Assembly: GCA_044344255.1 (NCBI GenBank)
Contig: JBIJDH010000030.1
Coordinates: forward strand, 1 to 63,991
Length of the DNA: 63,991 bases
Direction: 5' to 3'
Source of the DNA: Myxococcota bacterium
Lineage (GTDB): Bacteria; Myxococcota_A; UBA796; UBA2385
Made by a program: the position numbers and the translations under genes. This document shows positions 1,953-19,285 of the stretch, one piece after another (positions within the stretch are counted from its first letter, which is position 1; each line of letters begins with the position of its first letter). Under the pieces are notes generated by a model. That model worked only from the letters and a program-made list of their open reading frames with translations, had not been told where the DNA came from and ran no database searches.

Positions 1953-3566
1953 TCAACGTCTCCGCCGATAGAGGAGGAGGGCGCCCAGGAGATAGGCCAG
2001 GAAGGAGGTGGGCGCGCCCGACAAACCGCGCTCACCGCGGGGCCTCCCGTTGGCGGTCCCGCAGGCGCAGCCGGCGCTGCCCACCTGAACCTCGACCTCG
2101 TCAGAGGCGGAGATCTCGGCCTCTGTCACGGTCAGTCGGAGGGTGTAGCGGCCCTCCCGGTCCGGCGTGAAGCGACAGAGGGCCTCGTCCGCCTGGATGA
2201 GGTGGGTGTCGGTGAGCTCGGAGCCCGACGGGGTGCTCTCCAGCGTCCATTGGTAAGAGAGGGTGCCGTGGTTGGGGCTCTGTGACTCGCTCCCGTCCAC
2301 CTGCACGGACTGACCGAGGGAGATCTGGCGGTCGGGGCCGGCGTCGGCCACGGGCGAGGCGGGATCAACGTCCGGCTGGCCGCTGTCCTCCCCCGAGGGG
2401 GGTGCGGAGTCCCCGGGCTCATTCGTATCCCCAGGTGTGGCGGTGTCGCCCGGGGTGCCGGTGTCCCCCGGGTCGGTCTCTTCGAGGATGGCGGGGTCGA
2501 GCTTGAGCTCCACCAGGGTGGGATTGACGGCGTGGTTGTAGGTGACGATGAGGACATCATCCTGGGCGGCCAAGAAGGTCCCCATCGCCCCCTGGGTGGG
2601 GGCCTCGTCGGTCACCTGCACGGACTGGACGTGGTTCCAGTCTTTGTCAAAGACCTCGACGTAGACATTTCCGGTCAGGGTGATCCAGTCATCCGCCTCC
2701 GCGGCGTTGACGCCGACGTGCCCGACGAAGAAGTAGTCGTGGTATCGAATGAGCCCCTGTGGCCATCGCACGATGCCGTCATCGGGCATCACTTGCACCA
2801 CGAGGGTGTCGACCTCATTCAGGTCGTGGTCGTACCGCATGATGGTGAGCTCAGGGGAGTCACCGAAGGAGCGGACGCTGATGATCTGGTCGGACTCTTC
2901 GTCGTAGAGGATCGAGCTCCCCCCGAGCACCGGCACCTGTCGAAAGGGGAGGGCCGCTTCGGGCTCCGCGGCGGCGTCCACAGGGACGAAGATGCCGAAA
3001 GGCGAGGCGCCGCTCGAGGTGTCCCGGGCGCCGAAGGGAGCGCCGTCGAGGAAGCCCGAGCAGAGCACCGGGGCGTCGTTGTAGAAGTGGTCGGGGTCAC
3101 TCTCGGCGATGGCCCCACTGGCGATGACATTCCAGTCGGCGTCGTATCGAAAGGCATACGCGCTGTCGTCGAAGCCGCTCAGGTTGGCGGAGGCGACGTG
3201 CAGCCAGCTCCCGTCGGGGCAGGCGGTGATGGCGTGGTCGACCAGCACGGTTGAGTCGTTGAGGGCCTCTTCGTCATCGAGCATGCTGTAGTCGGACAGC
3301 ATCGTCCGTCGGTGATAGGCGCCACCGGAGGCTCGAAAGACCGTCCAGTTCCCGTCCTCGGCGGGGAAGGCGTGCACCCAGTTTCCAGCGGAGTCACCGA
3401 TAGGAAGGGGGCTCCCATAGGAGAGGATCACGTCCTCCGCCAGCGCCGGATAACCCGCGAGGAGGAGGAGCGCCGCGAAGGCGCCTGGCCCGCTGTGGAG
3501 GCGACCTGGGGAGCGCTGGCGGGGTGTGCGGCTGTGCTTGGGGAGGAGCGGGGCGGCGTCGGGCAT
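1953..3566 (-). CDS. Secreted protein with PKD-like domain and MYXO-CTERM-like tail
   Basis: Signal peptide ending PALA-ED, acidic GDT linker, PVADAGPD..DGSES..LSYQW..FTPD..G.YTLRLTV PKD-like repeat, C-terminal GCAC + hydrophobic helix + RRRR. Confidence 0.8.
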   Translation of the reverse strand: MPDAAPLLPKHSRTPRQRSPGRLHSGPGAFAALLLLAGYPALAEDVILSYGSPLPIGDSAGNWVHAFPAEDGNWTVFRASGGAYHRRTMLSDYSMLDDEEALNDSTVLVDHAITACPDGSWLHVASANLSGFDDSAYAFRYDADWNVIASGAIAESDPDHFYNDAPVLCSGFLDGAPFGARDTSSGASPFGIFVPVDAAAEPEAALPFRQVPVLGGSSILYDEESDQIISVRSFGDSPELTIMRYDHDLNEVDTLVVQVMPDDGIVRWPQGLIRYHDYFFVGHVGVNAAEADDWITLTGNVYVEVFDKDWNHVQSVQVTDEAPTQGAMGTFLAAQDDVLIVTYNHAVNPTLVELKLDPAILEETDPGDTGTPGDTATPGDTNEPGDSAPPSGEDSGQPDVDPASPVADAGPDRQISLGQSVQVDGSESQSPNHGTLSYQWTLESTPSGSELTDTHLIQADEALCRFTPDREGRYTLRLTVTEAEISASDEVEVQVGSAGCACGTANGRPRGERGLSGAPTSFLAYLLGALLLYRRRR

Positions 3567-5320: not shown

Positions 5321-5962
5321 ATGCCTGATGCCACCCCCCGCAAGCCCGCGAAGCCCTTCGAGCTCATCCGATCCCTGGCGCTCGCAGACTTCATCACCCT
5401 CGCCAACGCCGCCTGCGGGACGGGCGCCATCTTCCTCTGCTTGAATTGTCTGGAAGACGATCATCAGGCCAAGTGGATGAAGGTGGCCTTCATCCTGCTC
5501 CCCTTCGCCTTCTTCTTCGACATGGCCGACGGCGCTGTGGCGCGCTGGCGACGGCGGAGCAGCCCCTACGGCGCCGACCTCGACTCCCTCGCCGACGTCG
5601 TCTCCTTCGGCGTGGCCCCCGCCGTCATCGGCTGGACGCTCGGGATGCGCGGGCTGTGGGACGCCCTCGTGCTCATCTACTTCGTGTGCAGCGGGATCGG
5701 GCGCCTCGCCCGCTTCAACGTCACCGCGGAGTCGCTGACCGATGACGCCACCGGCAAGGTGCGGTACTTCGAGGGGACGCCGATCCCCACCAGCCTCGCC
5801 ATCGTGGGCATCCTGGCCTTCGCTTGGTACCACGGGGCGGTCTGGGACAACCTCTGGTTCGGATCGGTGAAGATCGGCCCCGGGACGCTCCACCCCCTGG
5901 TCTTGCTCTACTTCGTGAGCGGTAGCCTGATGACGAGCAAGATCCACTTCCCCAAGCCCTGA
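5321..5962 (+). CDS. pssA: CDP-alcohol phosphatidyltransferase (phosphatidylserine synthase)
   Basis: DMADGAVAR..YGADLDSLADVVSFGVAPA signature, RLARFNV, FEGTPIP. Confidence 0.9.
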   Translation: MPDATPRKPAKPFELIRSLALADFITLANAACGTGAIFLCLNCLEDDHQAKWMKVAFILLPFAFFFDMADGAVARWRRRSSPYGADLDSLADVVSFGVAPAVIGWTLGMRGLWDALVLIYFVCSGIGRLARFNVTAESLTDDATGKVRYFEGTPIPTSLAIVGILAFAWYHGAVWDNLWFGSVKIGPGTLHPLVLLYFVSGSLMTSKIHFPKP

Positions 5963-6044
5963 GCCCCGGGCTAGGGGTCCTGCGATCGCCGGGTCGGGCC
6001 TCCGCCGCGCTCGCTACTCTCGTACTCTCGACGGAAGGATTCGG

Positions 6045-7976
6045 ATGGAATCGAGCACCAAGCTCCAGGTCGTGTCGGTCGGTTTGATGGGCGCGGTCTT
6101 GGTCGCGCTCCTCATGGACATCGCCTCCCACGATCGGCTGGAGGAGCAGGTCATCGCCACCCGCCTCGCGGTCGAGGGCAAGTCGAGCATCGGGTCGGCG
6201 CCCGCGACGGTGGCCGTGCAGACGGTCGCGGCCACGGACTGCGCGCCCGGCCAGCCCTCCGGGCGGAAGGCCAAGGGGTGGGGCGGGCGAGAGGCCGACA
6301 TCTTGTGCGTGGAGGGGTCCGCTTCGGGGGCCCCGCGCGCGATCGCGGAGAAGCCGAGGCCGCAGGGGGACTCCTACGTCAACCGCCGCACGAGCCCCCC
6401 GTCCACGCTCAACTATTACGCGACCAGCGAGGGAGAGACCGGCCAGGTCACGAAGTACATCCTCGAGAAGATGATCGAGATCGATCCCGACGCGCCGCCC
6501 GCGGTGTTGCCCTCGCTCGCCACCTCTTGGGAGGTGTCGGCCGACCACCTGACCTACACCTACCACCTGCGGCGGGGCGTACAGTTCGCCGACGGCCGGC
6601 CCTTCACCGCCGAAGACGTGGTCTTCACCTTCGACGTCGTGCGCGACCCCGCCGTGAAGGCCGACCACCTCCGCCCGGCCTTCGAGGACGTGAAGTCCCT
6701 CGTCGCGAAAGACCCGTACACGGTCGAGGTCACCTACGCGAAGACCTATTGGAAGGGCATCTACGCGGTCGGCAACCAGCTCCGGGTCTTGAACAAGGCC
6801 TGGGTGCAGGAGCAGCTCCCCAAGGTCGCCAAGACGCTCGACGTCGCGGTCGTCTCGGTCGATCCCGGCAAGCCTGGCTTCGGCGAGGTCTTCAACAAGC
6901 TGCGAGTGCCCGGCCCGGGCACGGGCCCCTACTACTTCTCGGTGGACGAGTACGACCCCAAGAAGCCGCTCGAGATCACACAGAACCCGTTCTACTGGGG
7001 CACCCAGGTCAACCCCACCTGGTACAACCTGACGAACCTGCGGTGGATCTTCATCTCGGACGAGGTGGCGGCCTTTGAGGCCTTCCGCAAGCAGTCCTTC
7101 GACGTCTCGGTGGTCGACTTCCAGCCCTGGGACGACCAGTACAAGGCCGACCCCACCATCACTGGCATCTCGAACTACTTCGAGTATGACCACATGGGGC
7201 TCGGCTACTCCGAGATCGTGTGGAACAACCGTCAGCCCCCCTTCAACGACCCCAAGGTGCGGCTCGCGATGACCCACCTCGTCGATCGGGGCTGGATCAT
7301 CCAGGAGATCGAGCGCGGGCGGGGCGAGATCGCCACCTGCCCCTCGAAGAAGACCTACCCGCAGTACCTGCAGACCGAGCCCATCCCCTTCGACGTCGAG
7401 AAGGCGCGGGCTCTGCTCGCGGAGGCGGGCTGGAAGGACACCAACGGTGACGGTGTGCTCGACAAGGGCGGCAAGCCCTTCGAATTCGAGCTCAAGGTGG
7501 GCTCCCCGCGGCGCTTTTACACCCAGGTGGCGGCCCAGCTCGGTGACGCCGCCAAGAAGGTGGGCATCCGGATGACCCTCCGTCAGCTCGAGTGGGCCAC
7601 CTTCATCCAGGACTACCAGGAGCGTCGCTTCGACTCGGCGGTGCTCTATGAGAGCTTCTCCGACCCCTGGATCGACAGCTACGAGAGCTTCCACAGCTCG
7701 CAGGACGTGCCCAATGGCGGTAACGCCGCGGGCTGGCACAACCCGGCGGCCGACACGCTGCTCGAGGGCATGCGCACCGAGTTCGACAATGCGGCCCGCG
7801 ACAAGATGTACCAGGAGTTCTGCCGTGTCTTCATCGAGGACCAGCCGGTCACCCTGTTGGCCCACGGCCGCGTCGGGGTGCTCCAGAACGGCCGCTTCGA
7901 GGGGGCCAAGGTGCGCCCCACCGGGCTCCAGCTCTTCGACATCTACGTCAAGCCCGACAAGGTCCTGTACAAGTAG
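6045..7976 (+). CDS. Peptide ABC transporter substrate-binding protein (family 5), membrane-anchored
   Basis: PSLATSWEVSAD..YTYHLRRGVQFADGRPFTAEDVVFT, GTGPY, FNDPKVRLAM, LLAEAGWKD. N-terminal TM helix. Confidence 0.93.
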   Translation: MESSTKLQVVSVGLMGAVLVALLMDIASHDRLEEQVIATRLAVEGKSSIGSAPATVAVQTVAATDCAPGQPSGRKAKGWGGREADILCVEGSASGAPRAIAEKPRPQGDSYVNRRTSPPSTLNYYATSEGETGQVTKYILEKMIEIDPDAPPAVLPSLATSWEVSADHLTYTYHLRRGVQFADGRPFTAEDVVFTFDVVRDPAVKADHLRPAFEDVKSLVAKDPYTVEVTYAKTYWKGIYAVGNQLRVLNKAWVQEQLPKVAKTLDVAVVSVDPGKPGFGEVFNKLRVPGPGTGPYYFSVDEYDPKKPLEITQNPFYWGTQVNPTWYNLTNLRWIFISDEVAAFEAFRKQSFDVSVVDFQPWDDQYKADPTITGISNYFEYDHMGLGYSEIVWNNRQPPFNDPKVRLAMTHLVDRGWIIQEIERGRGEIATCPSKKTYPQYLQTEPIPFDVEKARALLAEAGWKDTNGDGVLDKGGKPFEFELKVGSPRRFYTQVAAQLGDAAKKVGIRMTLRQLEWATFIQDYQERRFDSAVLYESFSDPWIDSYESFHSSQDVPNGGNAAGWHNPAADTLLEGMRTEFDNAARDKMYQEFCRVFIEDQPVTLLAHGRVGVLQNGRFEGAKVRPTGLQLFDIYVKPDKVLYK

Positions 7977-9923
7977 ATGATCGCGTACCTCATCAAGCGA
8001 ATCCTGGCGATGATCCCGACCCTCATCGGGATCACCTTCATCACCTTCCTGATGATCAACCTCGCGCCGGGCGATCCGGTGGCTGCACAGTTCGGCGGCG
8101 GCGCAGAGAAGTCGACCGAGGGGGGGGGCGGCGGCGATCAGAGCCGGCAGAACGACACCATCAAGGCAAAGAAGAAGCTGCTCGGGATGCTGCGGGAGGA
8201 CTACGCGCTGCACGCCTGGGGGGGCGCTGTTGCCCTCGATCTCGAGGAGGGGAGCGGCGCGGCCCCCCTCGAGGAGGGGCCCGCGGTGGAGGGGCTCGGT
8301 CGGTGGGCGCGGGCCCTGGCCCGGAGCGCGGACGGCCAGCGCCTCTACGCCGGAGGGGACGGCGGCTTCATCGTCGCGGTGGACCCTGCGGGGGGGGCGG
8401 TCGCTTCCACCTTCGCGGGGCACACGGTGCCGGTCTCGGCCCTCGCGGTCTCACCGGACGGACAGCGCCTCGCCTCGGCGGACAGCTCCGGCGTGGTCAA
8501 GCTCTGGGACCTCGGCACGGGGGCCGAGCTCCAGAGCGCCGAGGCCCTCTCGCTGCCGATCCGCGACCTCGCCTGGCTCCCGGACGGGCGTCTGCTCGTC
8601 GCCGCCGACGACGGCGTGGTCCGGCTCGAAGATGGCCAGAGCCTCGCCGTGCAGCGCACCTTCGAGGGGGCCATCGGCGGCGTCTACGCCCTCGCGGTGG
8701 CGCCGGGCGGCGCTCGCTTCTGGGCGGGCGGCGCCGACCGCGTCCTCCGCGAGTGGGACCCCAGCAGCGGCCAGCTCACCCAGGAGCGAAAGGACCACCG
8801 GCAGGCCATCCACGACCTCGCGCTCTCCCCCGACGGCGCCTTGCTCGCGACCGCCTCCGAGGACCGCGCCGTGCGGGTCATCGAGCTCGCGCGGCCCGAC
8901 GCCCCCGCCCGGGAGCTCGGCCTCCACTACAAGGGCGTGCTGGCCGTCACCTTCGCCGCCGATGGGCAGTCGGTCTACTCCGGCGGCATCGACGAGAGCG
9001 TGCGCCAGTGGTCGGTGGCCGAGGCCAAGGAGCTCGGCCGCAGCGCGAAGGGCACGGGCGTGGTGCGGGCGCTGGTGGCGAGAGATGGCCAGGTCTGGTC
9101 GGCCGCCGACTCCTGGACGCCGGTTCCCATCCCGCTCCGCTACCTCAAGTGGGTGGGGCGCATGGCCCGGCTCGACTTCGATCGATCCTTCTCCGACGAT
9201 CGACTGGTGATGGACAAGATCAAGGAGGCCATCCCCGTCACGATGGGGCTGAACCTGCTCACCATCCTCATCATCTACGCGGTGAGCGTGCCCCTCGGCA
9301 TCTTCGCCGCCGTGCGGCGGGGGAGCTGGTTCGACCACGTCTCTTCGTTCTTGTTGTTCCTGCTCTACTCGGTGCCCAATTTCTGGCTCGCTACGCTGCT
9401 GATCCTGACCTTCAGCTCGAAGACCAACTGGGACATCCTCCCGAGCGTGGGGCTCTCGGGAGATCACCCGGAGAACCTCAGCTACCTCTCCTACCTCTGG
9501 GATCGGATCACCCACCTCGTGCTGCCGATCTCGGTGATGGTCTACGGCGGCTTCGCCAGCCTCTCGCGCTACACCCGCACCTCACTGCTGGAGACGATCC
9601 AGCAGGACTATGTGCGAACTGCCCGCGCCAAGGGGCTCTCCGAGACGGTGGTGGTCTTGAAGCACGCCTTCCGCAACTCGCTCATCACCATCGTGACCCT
9701 CATTGGGAACCTGCTGCCGGCCTTGATCGGCGGCTCGGTGATCGTCGAGTACATCTTCTCGATCGACGGGATGGGCCGCTTGGGCTTCGACGCCATCCTC
9801 AGCCGCGACTACCCCGTGATCATGGCCACCACGACGATGAGCGCGGTGCTCACGCTCTTCGGTATCTTGCTCTCCGATATCCTGTACACCTTGGTCGATC
9901 CGCGGGTGTCCCATGACAACTGA
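7977..9923 (+). CDS. OppB/DppB-type ABC permease with inserted WD40 beta-propeller
   Basis: MIAYLIKRILAMIPTL..LAPGDP N-terminus, ~7 WD40 repeats at ~8290-9115, then RYLKW..LDFDRSF, QQDYVRTARAKGL (EAA loop), HAFRNSL, RDYPVI. Confidence 0.92.
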   Translation: MIAYLIKRILAMIPTLIGITFITFLMINLAPGDPVAAQFGGGAEKSTEGGGGGDQSRQNDTIKAKKKLLGMLREDYALHAWGGAVALDLEEGSGAAPLEEGPAVEGLGRWARALARSADGQRLYAGGDGGFIVAVDPAGGAVASTFAGHTVPVSALAVSPDGQRLASADSSGVVKLWDLGTGAELQSAEALSLPIRDLAWLPDGRLLVAADDGVVRLEDGQSLAVQRTFEGAIGGVYALAVAPGGARFWAGGADRVLREWDPSSGQLTQERKDHRQAIHDLALSPDGALLATASEDRAVRVIELARPDAPARELGLHYKGVLAVTFAADGQSVYSGGIDESVRQWSVAEAKELGRSAKGTGVVRALVARDGQVWSAADSWTPVPIPLRYLKWVGRMARLDFDRSFSDDRLVMDKIKEAIPVTMGLNLLTILIIYAVSVPLGIFAAVRRGSWFDHVSSFLLFLLYSVPNFWLATLLILTFSSKTNWDILPSVGLSGDHPENLSYLSYLWDRITHLVLPISVMVYGGFASLSRYTRTSLLETIQQDYVRTARAKGLSETVVVLKHAFRNSLITIVTLIGNLLPALIGGSVIVEYIFSIDGMGRLGFDAILSRDYPVIMATTTMSAVLTLFGILLSDILYTLVDPRVSHDN

Positions 9924-11076
9924 AAGGGGGGCAACTGAAGCGGGGTCGGCTGAAGCAGGGTCGGCGGTCGCGGCGGGGGGCGGGCCTCCCTCGCGCCCGT
10001 CGGAGAGCTACTCGGCGCGGGCCTGGCGGAAGCTCCGGGGCCACCCCTCCGGGATGACCGGCCTCGTGGTGGTGATCCTGCTCGCGTTGTTGGCGATGTT
10101 CGCCCCGTTGCTGGCGAACGATCGCCCGATCATCGCCGAATACAAGGATGAGCTCGTCTTTCCGGCCTTCACCACCTATGTGGACGCCTGGGTGCCCTGG
10201 CAGAGCCTCCGCTACGATTTGAAGAGCCTCGAGGTGGGTGCGGGCTACTTCCCCTTCGGAGACTACTACGCCTCCCTCGAGGACAAGACCTGGAAGGACG
10301 TGCGGGAGAGCCCCGAGATGTCCTTCTCGGTCTGGCCCTTGGTCGAGTGGAGCCCTACCCAATTTGACCGCGACGCGCTGAAGCTCCCGCCCGACCTCAA
10401 CGGCCCCCACCTCTTGGGCACCGACGACCAGGGGCGCGACGTGCTCGCCCGCCTGCTGCACGGCAGCGTCGTCGCCATGCTGGTGGGCCTCGTCGCGCAG
10501 GGCATCGCCACCTCGATCGGGGCCTCGCTCGGCATCCTCGCCGGCTTCAAGGGCGGGGTGATTGACCTCGTCCTCTCGCGAATCTGCGAGATCGTGATGT
10601 GCTTCCCCACCTTCTTCCTCATCATCGCTGTGACCGCCTTCCTCGAGCCCTCGATCATCAACATCATGGTCGCGTTGGGGCTCGTCGGCTGGACCAACGT
10701 CTTCCGCCTCGTGCGCGGCGAGGTGTTGAAGACCCGCGGACTCGAGTATGTGACGGCGGCCCGCGCCCTCGGGATGGGCTCCTGGCGCATCATGACGCGC
10801 CACGTCCTGCCCAATTCGGTGGCGCCGGTCTTCGTGGCCGTGCCCTTCGGTATCGCCGCCGCCGTGCTCACCGAGACCTCGCTCTCCTTCCTCGGCTTCG
10901 GAGATCCGAACGTCCCCTCCTGGGGTGAGATCGTGCAGCAAGGCCGTAACTACGTCTCCCAGGGCCTCTGGCACCTGACGCTGTTCCCCGGTCTGTGCAT
11001 CTTCGTCACGCTGACCGGCTTCAACCTGCTCGGGCAGGGCCTCCGTGACGCCCTCGATCCGCGACTCCGCACCTGA
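9913..11076 (+). CDS. OppC/DppC-type ABC permease
   Basis: HLLGTDDQGRDVLARL, EYVTAARALG, RHVLPN, LSFLGFG, SWG, GLRDALDP. Confidence 0.95.
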   Translation: MTTERGATEAGSAEAGSAVAAGGGPPSRPSESYSARAWRKLRGHPSGMTGLVVVILLALLAMFAPLLANDRPIIAEYKDELVFPAFTTYVDAWVPWQSLRYDLKSLEVGAGYFPFGDYYASLEDKTWKDVRESPEMSFSVWPLVEWSPTQFDRDALKLPPDLNGPHLLGTDDQGRDVLARLLHGSVVAMLVGLVAQGIATSIGASLGILAGFKGGVIDLVLSRICEIVMCFPTFFLIIAVTAFLEPSIINIMVALGLVGWTNVFRLVRGEVLKTRGLEYVTAARALGMGSWRIMTRHVLPNSVAPVFVAVPFGIAAAVLTETSLSFLGFGDPNVPSWGEIVQQGRNYVSQGLWHLTLFPGLCIFVTLTGFNLLGQGLRDALDPRLRT

Positions 11077-11142
11077 GTCCGCACCCTGAGTCCACAGCCT
11101 GAGTCCACAGCCTGAGTCCACAGCCTGAGTCCACATCCTGAG
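11072..11142 (+). repeat. 13-bp tandem repeat (cctgagtccacag) x ~5.5
   Basis: Units start at 11072, 11085, 11098, 11111, 11124, with a partial unit at 11137. No spacers. Confidence 0.95.
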
Positions 11143-11150
11143 AGAACACC

Positions 11151-13091
11151 ATGGGACAGCGCTCCGTCGTGGGTATCGCCCTCACCCTCGGGGGCCTGAC
11201 ATCCGGGAGCGCCCTCGCCGGACCCCGCACCGCCCTCGTCGGCCTCGAGTCTGCCCGCGGTGAGGCGGCCCTGCGTGCCGGGACCGCCGGGCTCGGGGGC
11301 ACTGTCCGCTACTGCTTCTCCGGGGCGCGGCTCTGCGCGGTCGACTTCCCCGGGGCCCCGCCGCTCCAAGCCCTCCAGCGGCTCCCCGGGCTCCGCTACG
11401 CGGTGCTCGATGAGGCCCTCCCCGCCCAGCAGGCCGCTTGGCCGGACGGCGCGGGCACGGCCGACTGCAGCGACCTCTGGGAGCTCGATCTGATGGACGC
11501 CGAGGGCATCTGGGCCCTGGCCGACGGAGCCAGTGGCCTTCCGGTGGCCATCGCCGACTCCGGCTTTCTGCTCACCCACGAGGACCTCGTCGGCACCGCG
11601 GACTACACCTGGGACTATGGCGACGGTGACAGCGGTGTCGAGGTGGTCTACGGCGTGTCGGTGCCCGGGCACGGCACCTTCATCGCCGATCTCGTGGGTG
11701 GCGACGGTGACAACGGGGTCGGGCGGGCCGGACTCGCGCCAGGGGGGGGGATCGCCTACCTCAAGATCGCCGACCACTTCAGCGCCCTCTACTATTCGTA
11801 CGCGATCGAGGCGCTGGCCGACGTCGCCTCCGGAGACGCCGGGGGCGCGCGGATCCTGTCCTACTCCCTGGCCGGTAATTCGAGCTACGGCCCCTTCTCC
11901 GACGCCGTCACCGCCCTCGGAGACGCCGGGGTGCTGCTGGTCGCCGCCGCCGCCAACTGTACGAGCGCGCACTGCAGCGACGCCGACAACGATCGGTATC
12001 CCCAGTACCCCGCCAGCTATGAGGGTGACTTCATCCTCAGCGTGGCGGGGACGCTCGAGGATGACACCCTCAACCCCTACTCCCACTACGGCGAGGAGAG
12101 CGTCGATCTCGCCGCCCCCGGCGATGACCTCTGCAGCGCCGGCATCGACTCGAGCGGCGACTATGAGGTCGCGAGCGGCACGAGCTACGCCACCCCGCTG
12201 GTCGCCGCCGCGGCCTCGCTCGTCTGGGAGCTCCACCCCGACCTTGAGGCCGAGGAGGTGGCGAACCTCATCCGCTGGACGGTCGAGCCCAGCGTCGACC
12301 TCGTCGGTAAGGTGGCGACCGGCGGCCGCCTCAATCCCCTGGACGCGCTCCAGGCGCCGCTCCCGGGCTTGAGCGTGCCCGCCGAGGTGGTGGCGCTCGA
12401 CCCCGAGGGCGCGCTCGTCGTCGAGGTGTCGAACCGCGCCGCCGCCGCGGACGCCACCCTCGTGCTCGTCCACGATCCGGCCCTGCGGGTCACCCACGCC
12501 ACGGGCTGGACGATCAGCCGGGTCGAGCCCGGGGAGACGCTCCACGCGGGGGGGGCCTCGACCACCCTCGGCGGCGTCGCGGCCACCCTCATCACCGGGA
12601 CGCTCGGGGCCCACCAGACCCAGCTCCCCGAGCTCACGGTTGAGGCCGCGGAGACCGGCAGCAGCACCGGCACCCTTCGGCTGCTGCTCGAAGGGGCGAG
12701 CGGCGTGACCCTCGGGGCTCCGCTGGATGGGAGCGTCGATGTGACCGGAGAGCCCGCCCTCGGCGTCGTCTTCGAGGCGAGCTCGGCGGTGGACCCCGGC
12801 GGCGACTCCGGCACCGACGGCGCCGATGGCACGGATGGCGCCGATGGGAGCGACGGTGCCGACGGTGCCGACGGTGCCGACGGCGCGGACGGGAGCGCCG
12901 ACAGCGGCGAGCCCACGGGGGACGGCGGCGGGGACGGCGCGGGTGACGGCGCCGCTGGAGCGGGCGCAGGCGGCAAGGGCTGCGGCTGCAGCGCGCTCGC
13001 CGAGGGTGCCACCGCGAGGGGCGGCGCGCTGCTCATCGCGGGGGTGGGTCTCCTGCTGCTCCGCCGTCGGCCCGCCGGCCTCAGGCGCTGA
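11151..13091 (+). CDS. S8 subtilisin-family serine peptidase with MYXO-CTERM-like tail
   Basis: Signal peptide, triad motifs IADSG / GHGT / SGTSYATP, DLAAPG, DG(A/T) linker, GCGC + TM + RRR. Confidence 0.9.
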   Translation: MGQRSVVGIALTLGGLTSGSALAGPRTALVGLESARGEAALRAGTAGLGGTVRYCFSGARLCAVDFPGAPPLQALQRLPGLRYAVLDEALPAQQAAWPDGAGTADCSDLWELDLMDAEGIWALADGASGLPVAIADSGFLLTHEDLVGTADYTWDYGDGDSGVEVVYGVSVPGHGTFIADLVGGDGDNGVGRAGLAPGGGIAYLKIADHFSALYYSYAIEALADVASGDAGGARILSYSLAGNSSYGPFSDAVTALGDAGVLLVAAAANCTSAHCSDADNDRYPQYPASYEGDFILSVAGTLEDDTLNPYSHYGEESVDLAAPGDDLCSAGIDSSGDYEVASGTSYATPLVAAAASLVWELHPDLEAEEVANLIRWTVEPSVDLVGKVATGGRLNPLDALQAPLPGLSVPAEVVALDPEGALVVEVSNRAAAADATLVLVHDPALRVTHATGWTISRVEPGETLHAGGASTTLGGVAATLITGTLGAHQTQLPELTVEAAETGSSTGTLRLLLEGASGVTLGAPLDGSVDVTGEPALGVVFEASSAVDPGGDSGTDGADGTDGADGSDGADGADGADGADGSADSGEPTGDGGGDGAGDGAAGAGAGGKGCGCSALAEGATARGGALLIAGVGLLLLRRRPAGLRR

Positions 13092-18640: not shown

Positions 18641-19285
18641 TTGGCCATCGATCTCCGCTGTTTCACCTACGTCGACATCCTCCAGGCGCAGACGGCGGGC
18701 TTCCTCGCCACGGTCAGCCAGGGCTACGCTCCCCTCGAGGGGCAGGCCTCGCTCTTCGTGGAGGTGGCGCCGGGGATGGACATCAACCTCGTGACCGACA
18801 TCGCCCTGAAGCAGACCTCCTGCACCCCCGGGATGCAGATCGTCGAGCGGCAATTCGGCTGCCTGGAGCTCCATCATTATGACCAGGGCCAGGTACGGGC
18901 CGCCGGTGAGGCGATCCTCGCCGCCCTGTCCTTGAAGGAGCTCGACCGGCTCAAGCCTCGCGTCGTCAGCGCCCAGACCATCACCGGGGTGACGGGCTAC
19001 CACGCCCAGATCACCAACCGGATGCGGCACGGGAACTTCCTGAACGAGGGCAAGACGCTCTACGTGCTCGAGACCCATCCCGCCGGCTACGCCCTCATCG
19101 CGGCCAACGAGGCCGAGAAGGCAGCCAAGATCGACATCCTCGAGGTGCTGAGCTTCGGCGCCTTCGGCCGCGTCTACCTCGGCGGCGGCGAGGAGGAGAT
19201 CGCAGAGGCGGCGAAGGCCGCGATCTCGGTGCTCGAGTCGATCGGCGGGCGCGACAACCCGGGCTCGGGCGCGGTCTTCTACTGA
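18641..19285 (+). CDS. Bacterial microcompartment tandem-domain shell protein (BMC-T, CcmP/CsoS1D-like)
   Basis: LQAQ..F, VEVAPG..IN..TDIALK, QIVERQFG.LELH..DQGQVRAAG, NRMRHG, LETHPAGYA..AANEAEKAA, FGAFGRVYLGG. From recall, it closely resembles Haliangium ochraceum BMC-T3. Confidence 0.92.
   Translation: MAIDLRCFTYVDILQAQTAGFLATVSQGYAPLEGQASLFVEVAPGMDINLVTDIALKQTSCTPGMQIVERQFGCLELHHYDQGQVRAAGEAILAALSLKELDRLKPRVVSAQTITGVTGYHAQITNRMRHGNFLNEGKTLYVLETHPAGYALIAANEAEKAAKIDILEVLSFGAFGRVYLGGGEEEIAEAAKAAISVLESIGGRDNPGSGAVFY

Follow-up and report, generated by a model that had tools for sequence, protein, structure and literature searches.

Within the window (the whole stretch of 63,991 nucleotides that was analyzed), three genes lie side by side on the forward strand between positions 6045 and 11076. 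They are predicted to encode a binding protein, a B-type permease carrying a WD40 propeller (here the propeller permease), and a C-type permease (Table 1). The stop codon of the binding-protein gene directly abuts the start codon of the propeller permease gene, and the operon, with its cluster C binding protein and C-type permease, has the composition of Opp/Dpp systems. The best NCBIfam match of the OppC-type permease was Opp4C, with a score under the cut-off. No sigma-70-like promoter was found, and RNA runs X19, X20, and X24 yielded only scattered short contigs.

Table 1. Positions in the window of the three module genes and of the parts of the propeller permease
Feature	Position	Strand	Details
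Cluster C (SBP_bac_5) binding protein	6045..7976	+	643 aa; Pfam E 5e-67
OppB/DppB-type permease with WD40 insert	7977..9923	+	648 aa
TM1, residues 1-29	7977..8063	+	Aligns to DppB 1-40; helix 2-29 in the model
Scoop-motif equivalent, residues 30-70	8064..8186	+	Position equivalent to DppB 32-62
Inserted domain, residues 72-382	8190..9122	+	Predicted two-strand stalk and seven-bladed WD40 propeller
Asp254-Arg255, blade 4	8736..8741	+	Present in 13/13 aligned members, both subfamilies; candidate top-face functional site
Helix alpha3 and TM2-TM6, residues 383-648	9123..9920	+	From alignment to DppB and model
Coupling helix (EAA loop) for the ATPase, residues 544-554	9606..9638	+	Invariant core, 89 rows
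OppC/DppC-type permease	9913..11076	+	387 aa as called (length rests on the called start codon); Pfam OppC_N and BPD_transp_1

A 14-base unit is repeated in tandem about five times between oppC and a downstream subtilase gene (positions 11071 to 11140), and the X13 and X18 contigs described below are without 39 bases at this repeat, so its copy number varies between strains. The subtilase ORF (Peptidase_S8; 11151-13091, forward strand) and an ORF predicted to encode a PKD-domain protein (1953-3566, reverse strand) both end in Cys-x-Cys followed by a hydrophobic stretch and a basic tail, and we take these tails to resemble MYXO-CTERM. A 214-amino-acid ORF (18641-19285, forward strand) presumably resembles a tandem bacterial microcompartment shell protein. 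In the propeller module of genome G003, oppC is broken into two frames (L044:2405-3556), through either an assembly error or a frameshift.

The propeller permease aligned to residues 1 to 40 of Escherichia coli DppB and again from its residue 384 (equivalent to DppB 61) through DppB 338, and its BPD_transp_1 domain scored 142.1 bits against a cut-off of 26.4. Alignment and model together recovered the six-membrane-helix layout with TM1, PGDP, the scoop region, and alpha3, and hydropathy (threshold 1.6) detected TM1 and four later segments. The coupling helix was intact, with D544, R547 to R550, and K552 to L554 invariant across 89 aligned rows. Most related permeases carry no insert and have a loop of 31 to 39 residues after TM1; measured alike, this stretch is about 310 residues longer in the propeller permease. 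The first-pass annotation of a WD40 propeller inserted in the first loop of an OppB protein was confirmed.

Residues 32 to 62 of E. coli DppB, between TM1 and alpha3, form a periplasmic scoop motif, of which alpha1 touches the C-lobe and alpha2 the N-lobe of DppA, and deletion of the scoop lowers ATPase activity to about one-fourth (PMC12136057, in excerpt). Similar scoop behavior is described for Mycobacterium tuberculosis DppB in the excerpted text of PMC10954201. The equivalent region of the propeller permease comprises PGDP, a Gly-rich loop (low pLDDT at residues 45 to 50), and a helix (52 to 68) ending in a conserved K-K-K-L-L-G, with P31 to P34, K65, L69, and G70 invariant in aligned rows; the insert enters where scoop helix alpha2 meets alpha3. 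Because the scoop equivalent is retained and the propeller directly follows alpha2, the propeller would be periplasmic, by homology with E. coli DppB, and would stand beside the expected N-lobe site. A cytoplasmic propeller was ruled out by the same homology. The earlier suggestion that the insert lies on the outer face where the binding protein docks is therefore supported, given the periplasmic position of the TM1-alpha3 loop in DppB and the binding of DppA by its scoop (PMC12136057, in excerpt).

The WD40 assignment of the insert was strong (PF00400, 110.6 bits against a cut-off of 27; E = 2e-32), and the predicted model was a closed seven-bladed ring that fitted seven-blade structures over about 280 to 300 residues with an rmsd of 1.9 A. 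Two predicted strands (72-75 and 379-382) make up the stalk, and blade 7 is split in the model between residues 78-104 and 363-377. Repeat scoring placed the opening of the ring in the b-c hairpin of blade 7: a repeat tail ending at residue 75 had a family score of 4.8, versus -5.5 for the next-best window, and no tail was found after residue 355. The best Foldseek match of the model was v22WRAP-T (7bif; TM score 0.92, versus 0.86 to 0.88 for other permutants), which is a designed 2+2 permutant (PMC8458387, in excerpt); in the structure-alignment search, the cluster representative listed was v31WRAP-T. Repeat scoring and the v22WRAP-T match both indicated a 2+2 register rather than the usual outer (1+3) or inner (3+1) closure. 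The propeller is thus predicted to close in the 2+2 manner and appears to be a natural case of this rare WD40 closure. With the ring opened in the middle of a blade, the stalk would, according to the repeat register, leave from the rim of the top face, which would place the conserved top face on the side of the transporter. Besides v22WRAP-T, the closest known propeller structures were the bacterial WD40 propellers 2ymu and PkwA (5yzv).

The fusion is not confined to this contig. Among the best 120 of 1,255 matches, 95 clusters, including that of the window, carry both propeller and membrane domain; the full-length fusions among the listed matches were 41 to 62% identical, with source names of Myxococcota, Myxococcales, Planctomycetes, Oligoflexia, Schekmanbacteria, and metagenome-assembled genomes labeled Alphaproteobacteria. 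X13 and X18 contigs, from two studies labeled freshwater and riverine, cover positions 5900 to 11084 without gaps (45 and 47 substitutions), spanning both junctions, and the propeller differences between strains comprised 13 synonymous and 2 nonsynonymous codons (counted over the 40 listed of 47 differences). These contigs and the fused homologues ruled out a chimeric assembly. A recent foreign insertion was also ruled out, with third-position GC content of 0.94 in the propeller and 0.90 to 0.93 in its flanks. The nearest other WD40 stretches in the host genome were only 28 to 33% identical to the propeller.

The distribution of the fusion is patchy. It was found in 8 of 40 relatives and in 3 of 401 genomes across the phylum, many of them incomplete, and in 16 of 151 genomes of the order (host included; 5 of 7 families), many of which are likewise incomplete. 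A single-protein scan of genome contigs gave only 2 full-length fusions among 19 loci, and long WD40 repeat proteins made up most of the matches in the representative-sequence search. The carriers are mostly uncultured myxobacteria-like microbes; judging by the names of its homologues, the host would be myxobacterium-like too. A second propeller subfamily comprises 9 proteins, of which one is named Planctomycetota; its blades align one to one with those of the first and have the same split register. In a quick membrane-domain tree of 72 rows, all 40 propeller rows fell in one group together with one long-branch plain row (SH-aLRT 93, under the starred threshold of this quick search). A single old insertion, as read from these sequences, is the simplest reading. 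Shortened or strongly diverged propeller inserts also occur in the same permease group (P0191 and L029:1-1188); shortened forms appear to be rare.

Top-face positions of the propeller, assigned from the repeat register rather than from coordinates, were significantly more conserved than bottom-face positions (mean entropy of 2.07 over 40 positions versus 2.84 over 38 positions, P = 2e-5); the top-face set combined R1, R1-2, and D-1 (after PMC3419727, in excerpt) with H+1, H+2, and D+1 added here, and the added positions include structural glycines, which may inflate the contrast. A set of 260 generic repeats varied at top positions no less than at the three bottom positions checked. Top-face residues more frequent in the family than in generic repeats were R196 (82% versus 12%), R255 (85%, or 76 of 89 rows, versus 20%), D280 (78% versus 2%), R297 (88% versus 20%), K319 (76% versus 3%), and E340 (84% versus 2%). 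The pair D254-R255 was the sole top-face feature common to both propeller subfamilies, which differ in their other conserved top-face residues and in the extensions of their binding proteins. Top-face hot spots are the usual protein-binding sites of WD40 domains (PMC3419727, in excerpt). Because the top face is conserved, a role of the propeller as a binding platform is plausible from sequence; the face could instead pack on the permease or the membrane.

The propeller may alternatively be a structural passenger at an insertion-permissive hinge, its conserved residues serving folding or packing with no specific partner. It is the least conserved part of the module (mean pairwise identity of 0.35; binding protein, 0.59; membrane domain, 0.67), any folded domain would be under purifying selection, and unrelated inserts occupy the same site in relatives, either helical without a Pfam match (loops of 182 to 191 residues) or PKD/Ig. 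The site after scoop helix alpha2 is evidently permissive. This explanation is nonetheless quite unlikely: the propeller is intact in the bulk of the listed clusters, down to 41% identity and in several phyla by name; shortened propellers appear rare (P0191); and the asymmetry between faces is absent from generic repeats.

In related genomes, OppB proteins with an approximately 150-residue insert, helical-looking by sequence, after alpha2 and no Pfam match were seen at L051 to L056, L032, L004, and L107 (for example, L053:7700-9163, reverse strand), and their operons keep oppDF wherever the locus extends that far. A Planctomycetales OppB (L003:7797-10025, forward strand) carries PKD/Ig-like domains at the same site. 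The ESM Atlas also held other permease-propeller clusters, combining BPD_transp_1 with PSII_BNR, WD40, or Reg_prop; with scores of 0.80 to 0.84 they are leads only. They differ from the WD40 permease in propeller family or in taxon (most commonly Chloroflexota and Pseudomonadota). The WD40-bearing OppB is one case of a recurring, unstudied permease-propeller design.

The closest solved relative of the binding protein was Bacillus subtilis AppA (1xoc, E = 6e-48), also its top Foldseek match, which was solved with a nonapeptide; the ligands of cluster C binding proteins also include nickel chelates and other solutes. The likeness to AppA suggests an oligopeptide substrate for the module. The N terminus of the binding protein forms a hydrophobic helix (residues 9 to 27 by hydropathy), a predicted membrane anchor, followed in the model by a flexible linker and an ordered, subfamily-specific extra hairpin (residues 71 to 87). 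Binding proteins of propeller loci were 53 to 68% identical to one another and about 24 to 39% identical to those of other loci, and so form their own subfamily; one member (P0344) has an added PF08308 domain. An insertion at about residues 251 to 283 is common to both propeller subfamilies and absent from plain relatives. The binding proteins of helical-insert systems likewise have a long insertion near these residues, which is therefore not specific to propellers.

Divergence of the binding protein correlated equally with that of the propeller (rho = 0.46) and of the membrane domain (rho = 0.45), and the former correlation is accounted for by coinheritance alone. Mutual information over 47 permease/binding-protein pairs, most of them joined only by contigs of equal size, gave a top pair of 237/490 (z = 9.6, versus shuffled maxima of 6.0 to 7.8), and top-face positions made up 36 of the top 200 versus 22.8 expected. 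The known scoop interface showed no enrichment (17 versus 19), and the highest-ranking pairs make up a clade-like clique; the test was therefore without power.

The top face might also act as a peptide prereceptor or filter, with a pocket that would take long peptides or unfolded protein ends and pass them on or keep them near the gate. Consistent with this are conserved charged and aromatic top-face residues (R196, D211, Y237, Y253, N279, D295, and R338), the retention of D254-R255 in both subfamilies, and a binding protein closest to a protein solved with a nonapeptide. The idea is doubtful, however, in that an ordinary AppA-like binding protein is still present in the operon, the remaining top-face residues differ between the two subfamilies, the stalk register would turn the top face to the transporter and not outward, and neighboring genes yield no substrate clue.

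Neither the window nor any of 25 propeller loci contained an ATPase gene, whereas oppDF was present in 11 of 16 nonpropeller loci. Of the propeller loci, 17 reach at least 2 kb past oppC (two of the 17 being apparent duplicates). ATPases of the oligo_HPY type were encoded on other contigs in all 10 genomes checked and in the host genome (G000), which has a candidate OppD/OppF pair (G000:C18 452637-454861). This pair was 54 to 64% identical to the ATPases of relatives' helical-insert operons. G000 and G025 each have an oppDF pair (72 to 74% identical), with no intact permease pair to match it in the sequence read; the one oppDF pair found in G001 is part of a helical-insert operon. The module likely uses OppD/OppF ATPases encoded elsewhere and would be an apparent example of a peptide importer without its own ATPase genes. 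The missing ATPase genes could also mean that the module is an ATPase-free peptide sensor rather than an importer, a reading made highly improbable by the invariant coupling helix, the oligo_HPY-type ATPases elsewhere in the genomes, and the lack of any conserved signaling domain or regulator nearby.

Other transport genes were seen in the host genome. A degenerate OppC-like ORF precedes the oppD/oppF pair (G000:C18 452637-455902, reverse strand), with no binding protein. Further SBP_bac_5 modules (G000:C65 125757-130758 and G000:C36 97320-99884) have strongly diverged permeases with weak coupling-helix motifs, and apparent binding protein-permease fusions, by look of the sugar type and the amino-acid type, lie at G000:C45 20996-23230 (reverse strand) and G000:C77 228752-230560 (forward strand), respectively.

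WD40 domains are general scaffolds, and with the ATPases of the module encoded elsewhere, other partners could be too. The propeller might accordingly dock a third envelope protein encoded elsewhere (a protease, an outer-membrane receptor, or a lipoprotein) and couple peptide production to uptake. A subtilase gene follows oppC in the window, but it has no counterpart among the neighbors of 17 related loci. Only the binding protein and oppC were retained as neighbors across loci; the three module genes and opposite-frame shadows aside, no other neighbor occurred in more than 4 of the 18 compared stretches. Such a partner is unlikely, and protease docking, offered as an example in the first-pass annotation, is not supported. 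Of the built-in receptor or scaffold proposed there, the platform survives as plausible on account of the conserved top face, and the binding protein of the module itself is a more economical partner than the other candidates.

The favored reading, to which we give about even odds (roughly 0.5), is that the propeller serves as a docking arm, keeping the anchored binding protein of its own module on the transporter as MalF P2 does MalE. The propeller would be set beside scoop helix alpha2, whose equivalent in E. coli DppB touches the DppA N-lobe; its conserved top face, turned to the transporter side, would grip the membrane-anchored binding protein; and OppD/OppF from elsewhere in the genome would power oligopeptide import through OppB-OppC. 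Contact between propeller and binding protein is something we infer by analogy. A tether would be less needed than for soluble MalE, since a membrane anchor is already predicted in the binding protein itself.

More tentatively, the 2+2-permuted ring might be a second, membrane-fixed peptide receptor that passes long peptides on to the binding protein; the three-gene module would borrow the ATPases of another importer. If a receptor reading were true, propeller inserts would represent a recurring means of building a further recognition step into ABC import; unless the prereceptor reading holds, the basic import mechanism is unchanged. The role of the loop after TM1 in sealing the binding protein to Dpp/Opp transporters was demonstrated only recently, and tuning of binding-protein docking by accessory domains is known so far mainly from MalF-P2. 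A platform of about 300 residues at the base of this loop makes it possible to test directly whether periplasmic accessory domains tune docking or add recognition.

The fusion is conserved yet patchy. No description of a WD40 insert in an Opp/Dpp permease was found in a full-text library that covers few subscription journals. In a survey of prokaryotic WD40 proteins (PMC5587647), the words "transport" and "permease" occur 0 times, and the propeller goes unmentioned in the PstSCAB paper. The WD40-bearing OppB is apparently an undescribed variation on a known peptide importer. YejABEF (compared from excerpts of PMC10924461) was the closest subfamily-level NCBIfam match after Opp2B, and YejB clusters lay near it in the Atlas. 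The propeller permease scored 240.7 bits against the YejB cut-off of 445 (NF011712), the insert itself lowering the whole-protein score. Unlike YejABEF, its locus has no yejF, and its binding protein is nearer AppA (E values above) than the YejA entry 7z8e (E = 3e-16).

MalF P2 of E. coli MalFGK2-E is likewise a folded periplasmic domain in a permease loop beside the dock of the binding protein, but it belongs to another family, its loop lies between TM3 and TM4 of MalF, and its fold is Ig-like. Binding of MalF-P2 to the N-lobe of MalE was measured (Kd of 7 to 22 uM; PMC6906923, in excerpt), whereas the corresponding contact of the propeller is proposed from analogy. With E. coli DppABCDF and OppABCDF and M. 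tuberculosis DppABCD and OppABCD (8z1v, 8z21, 8wd9, and 8j5q), the module shares a six-helix B-type permease with PGDP, scoop, alpha3, and coupling helix, and a cluster C binding protein and C-type permease in the same operon. It differs from these systems in an operon without ATPase genes, in the predicted transmembrane anchor of its binding protein, in a longer Gly-rich scoop loop, and in the WD40 propeller of about 310 residues set between scoop and alpha3.
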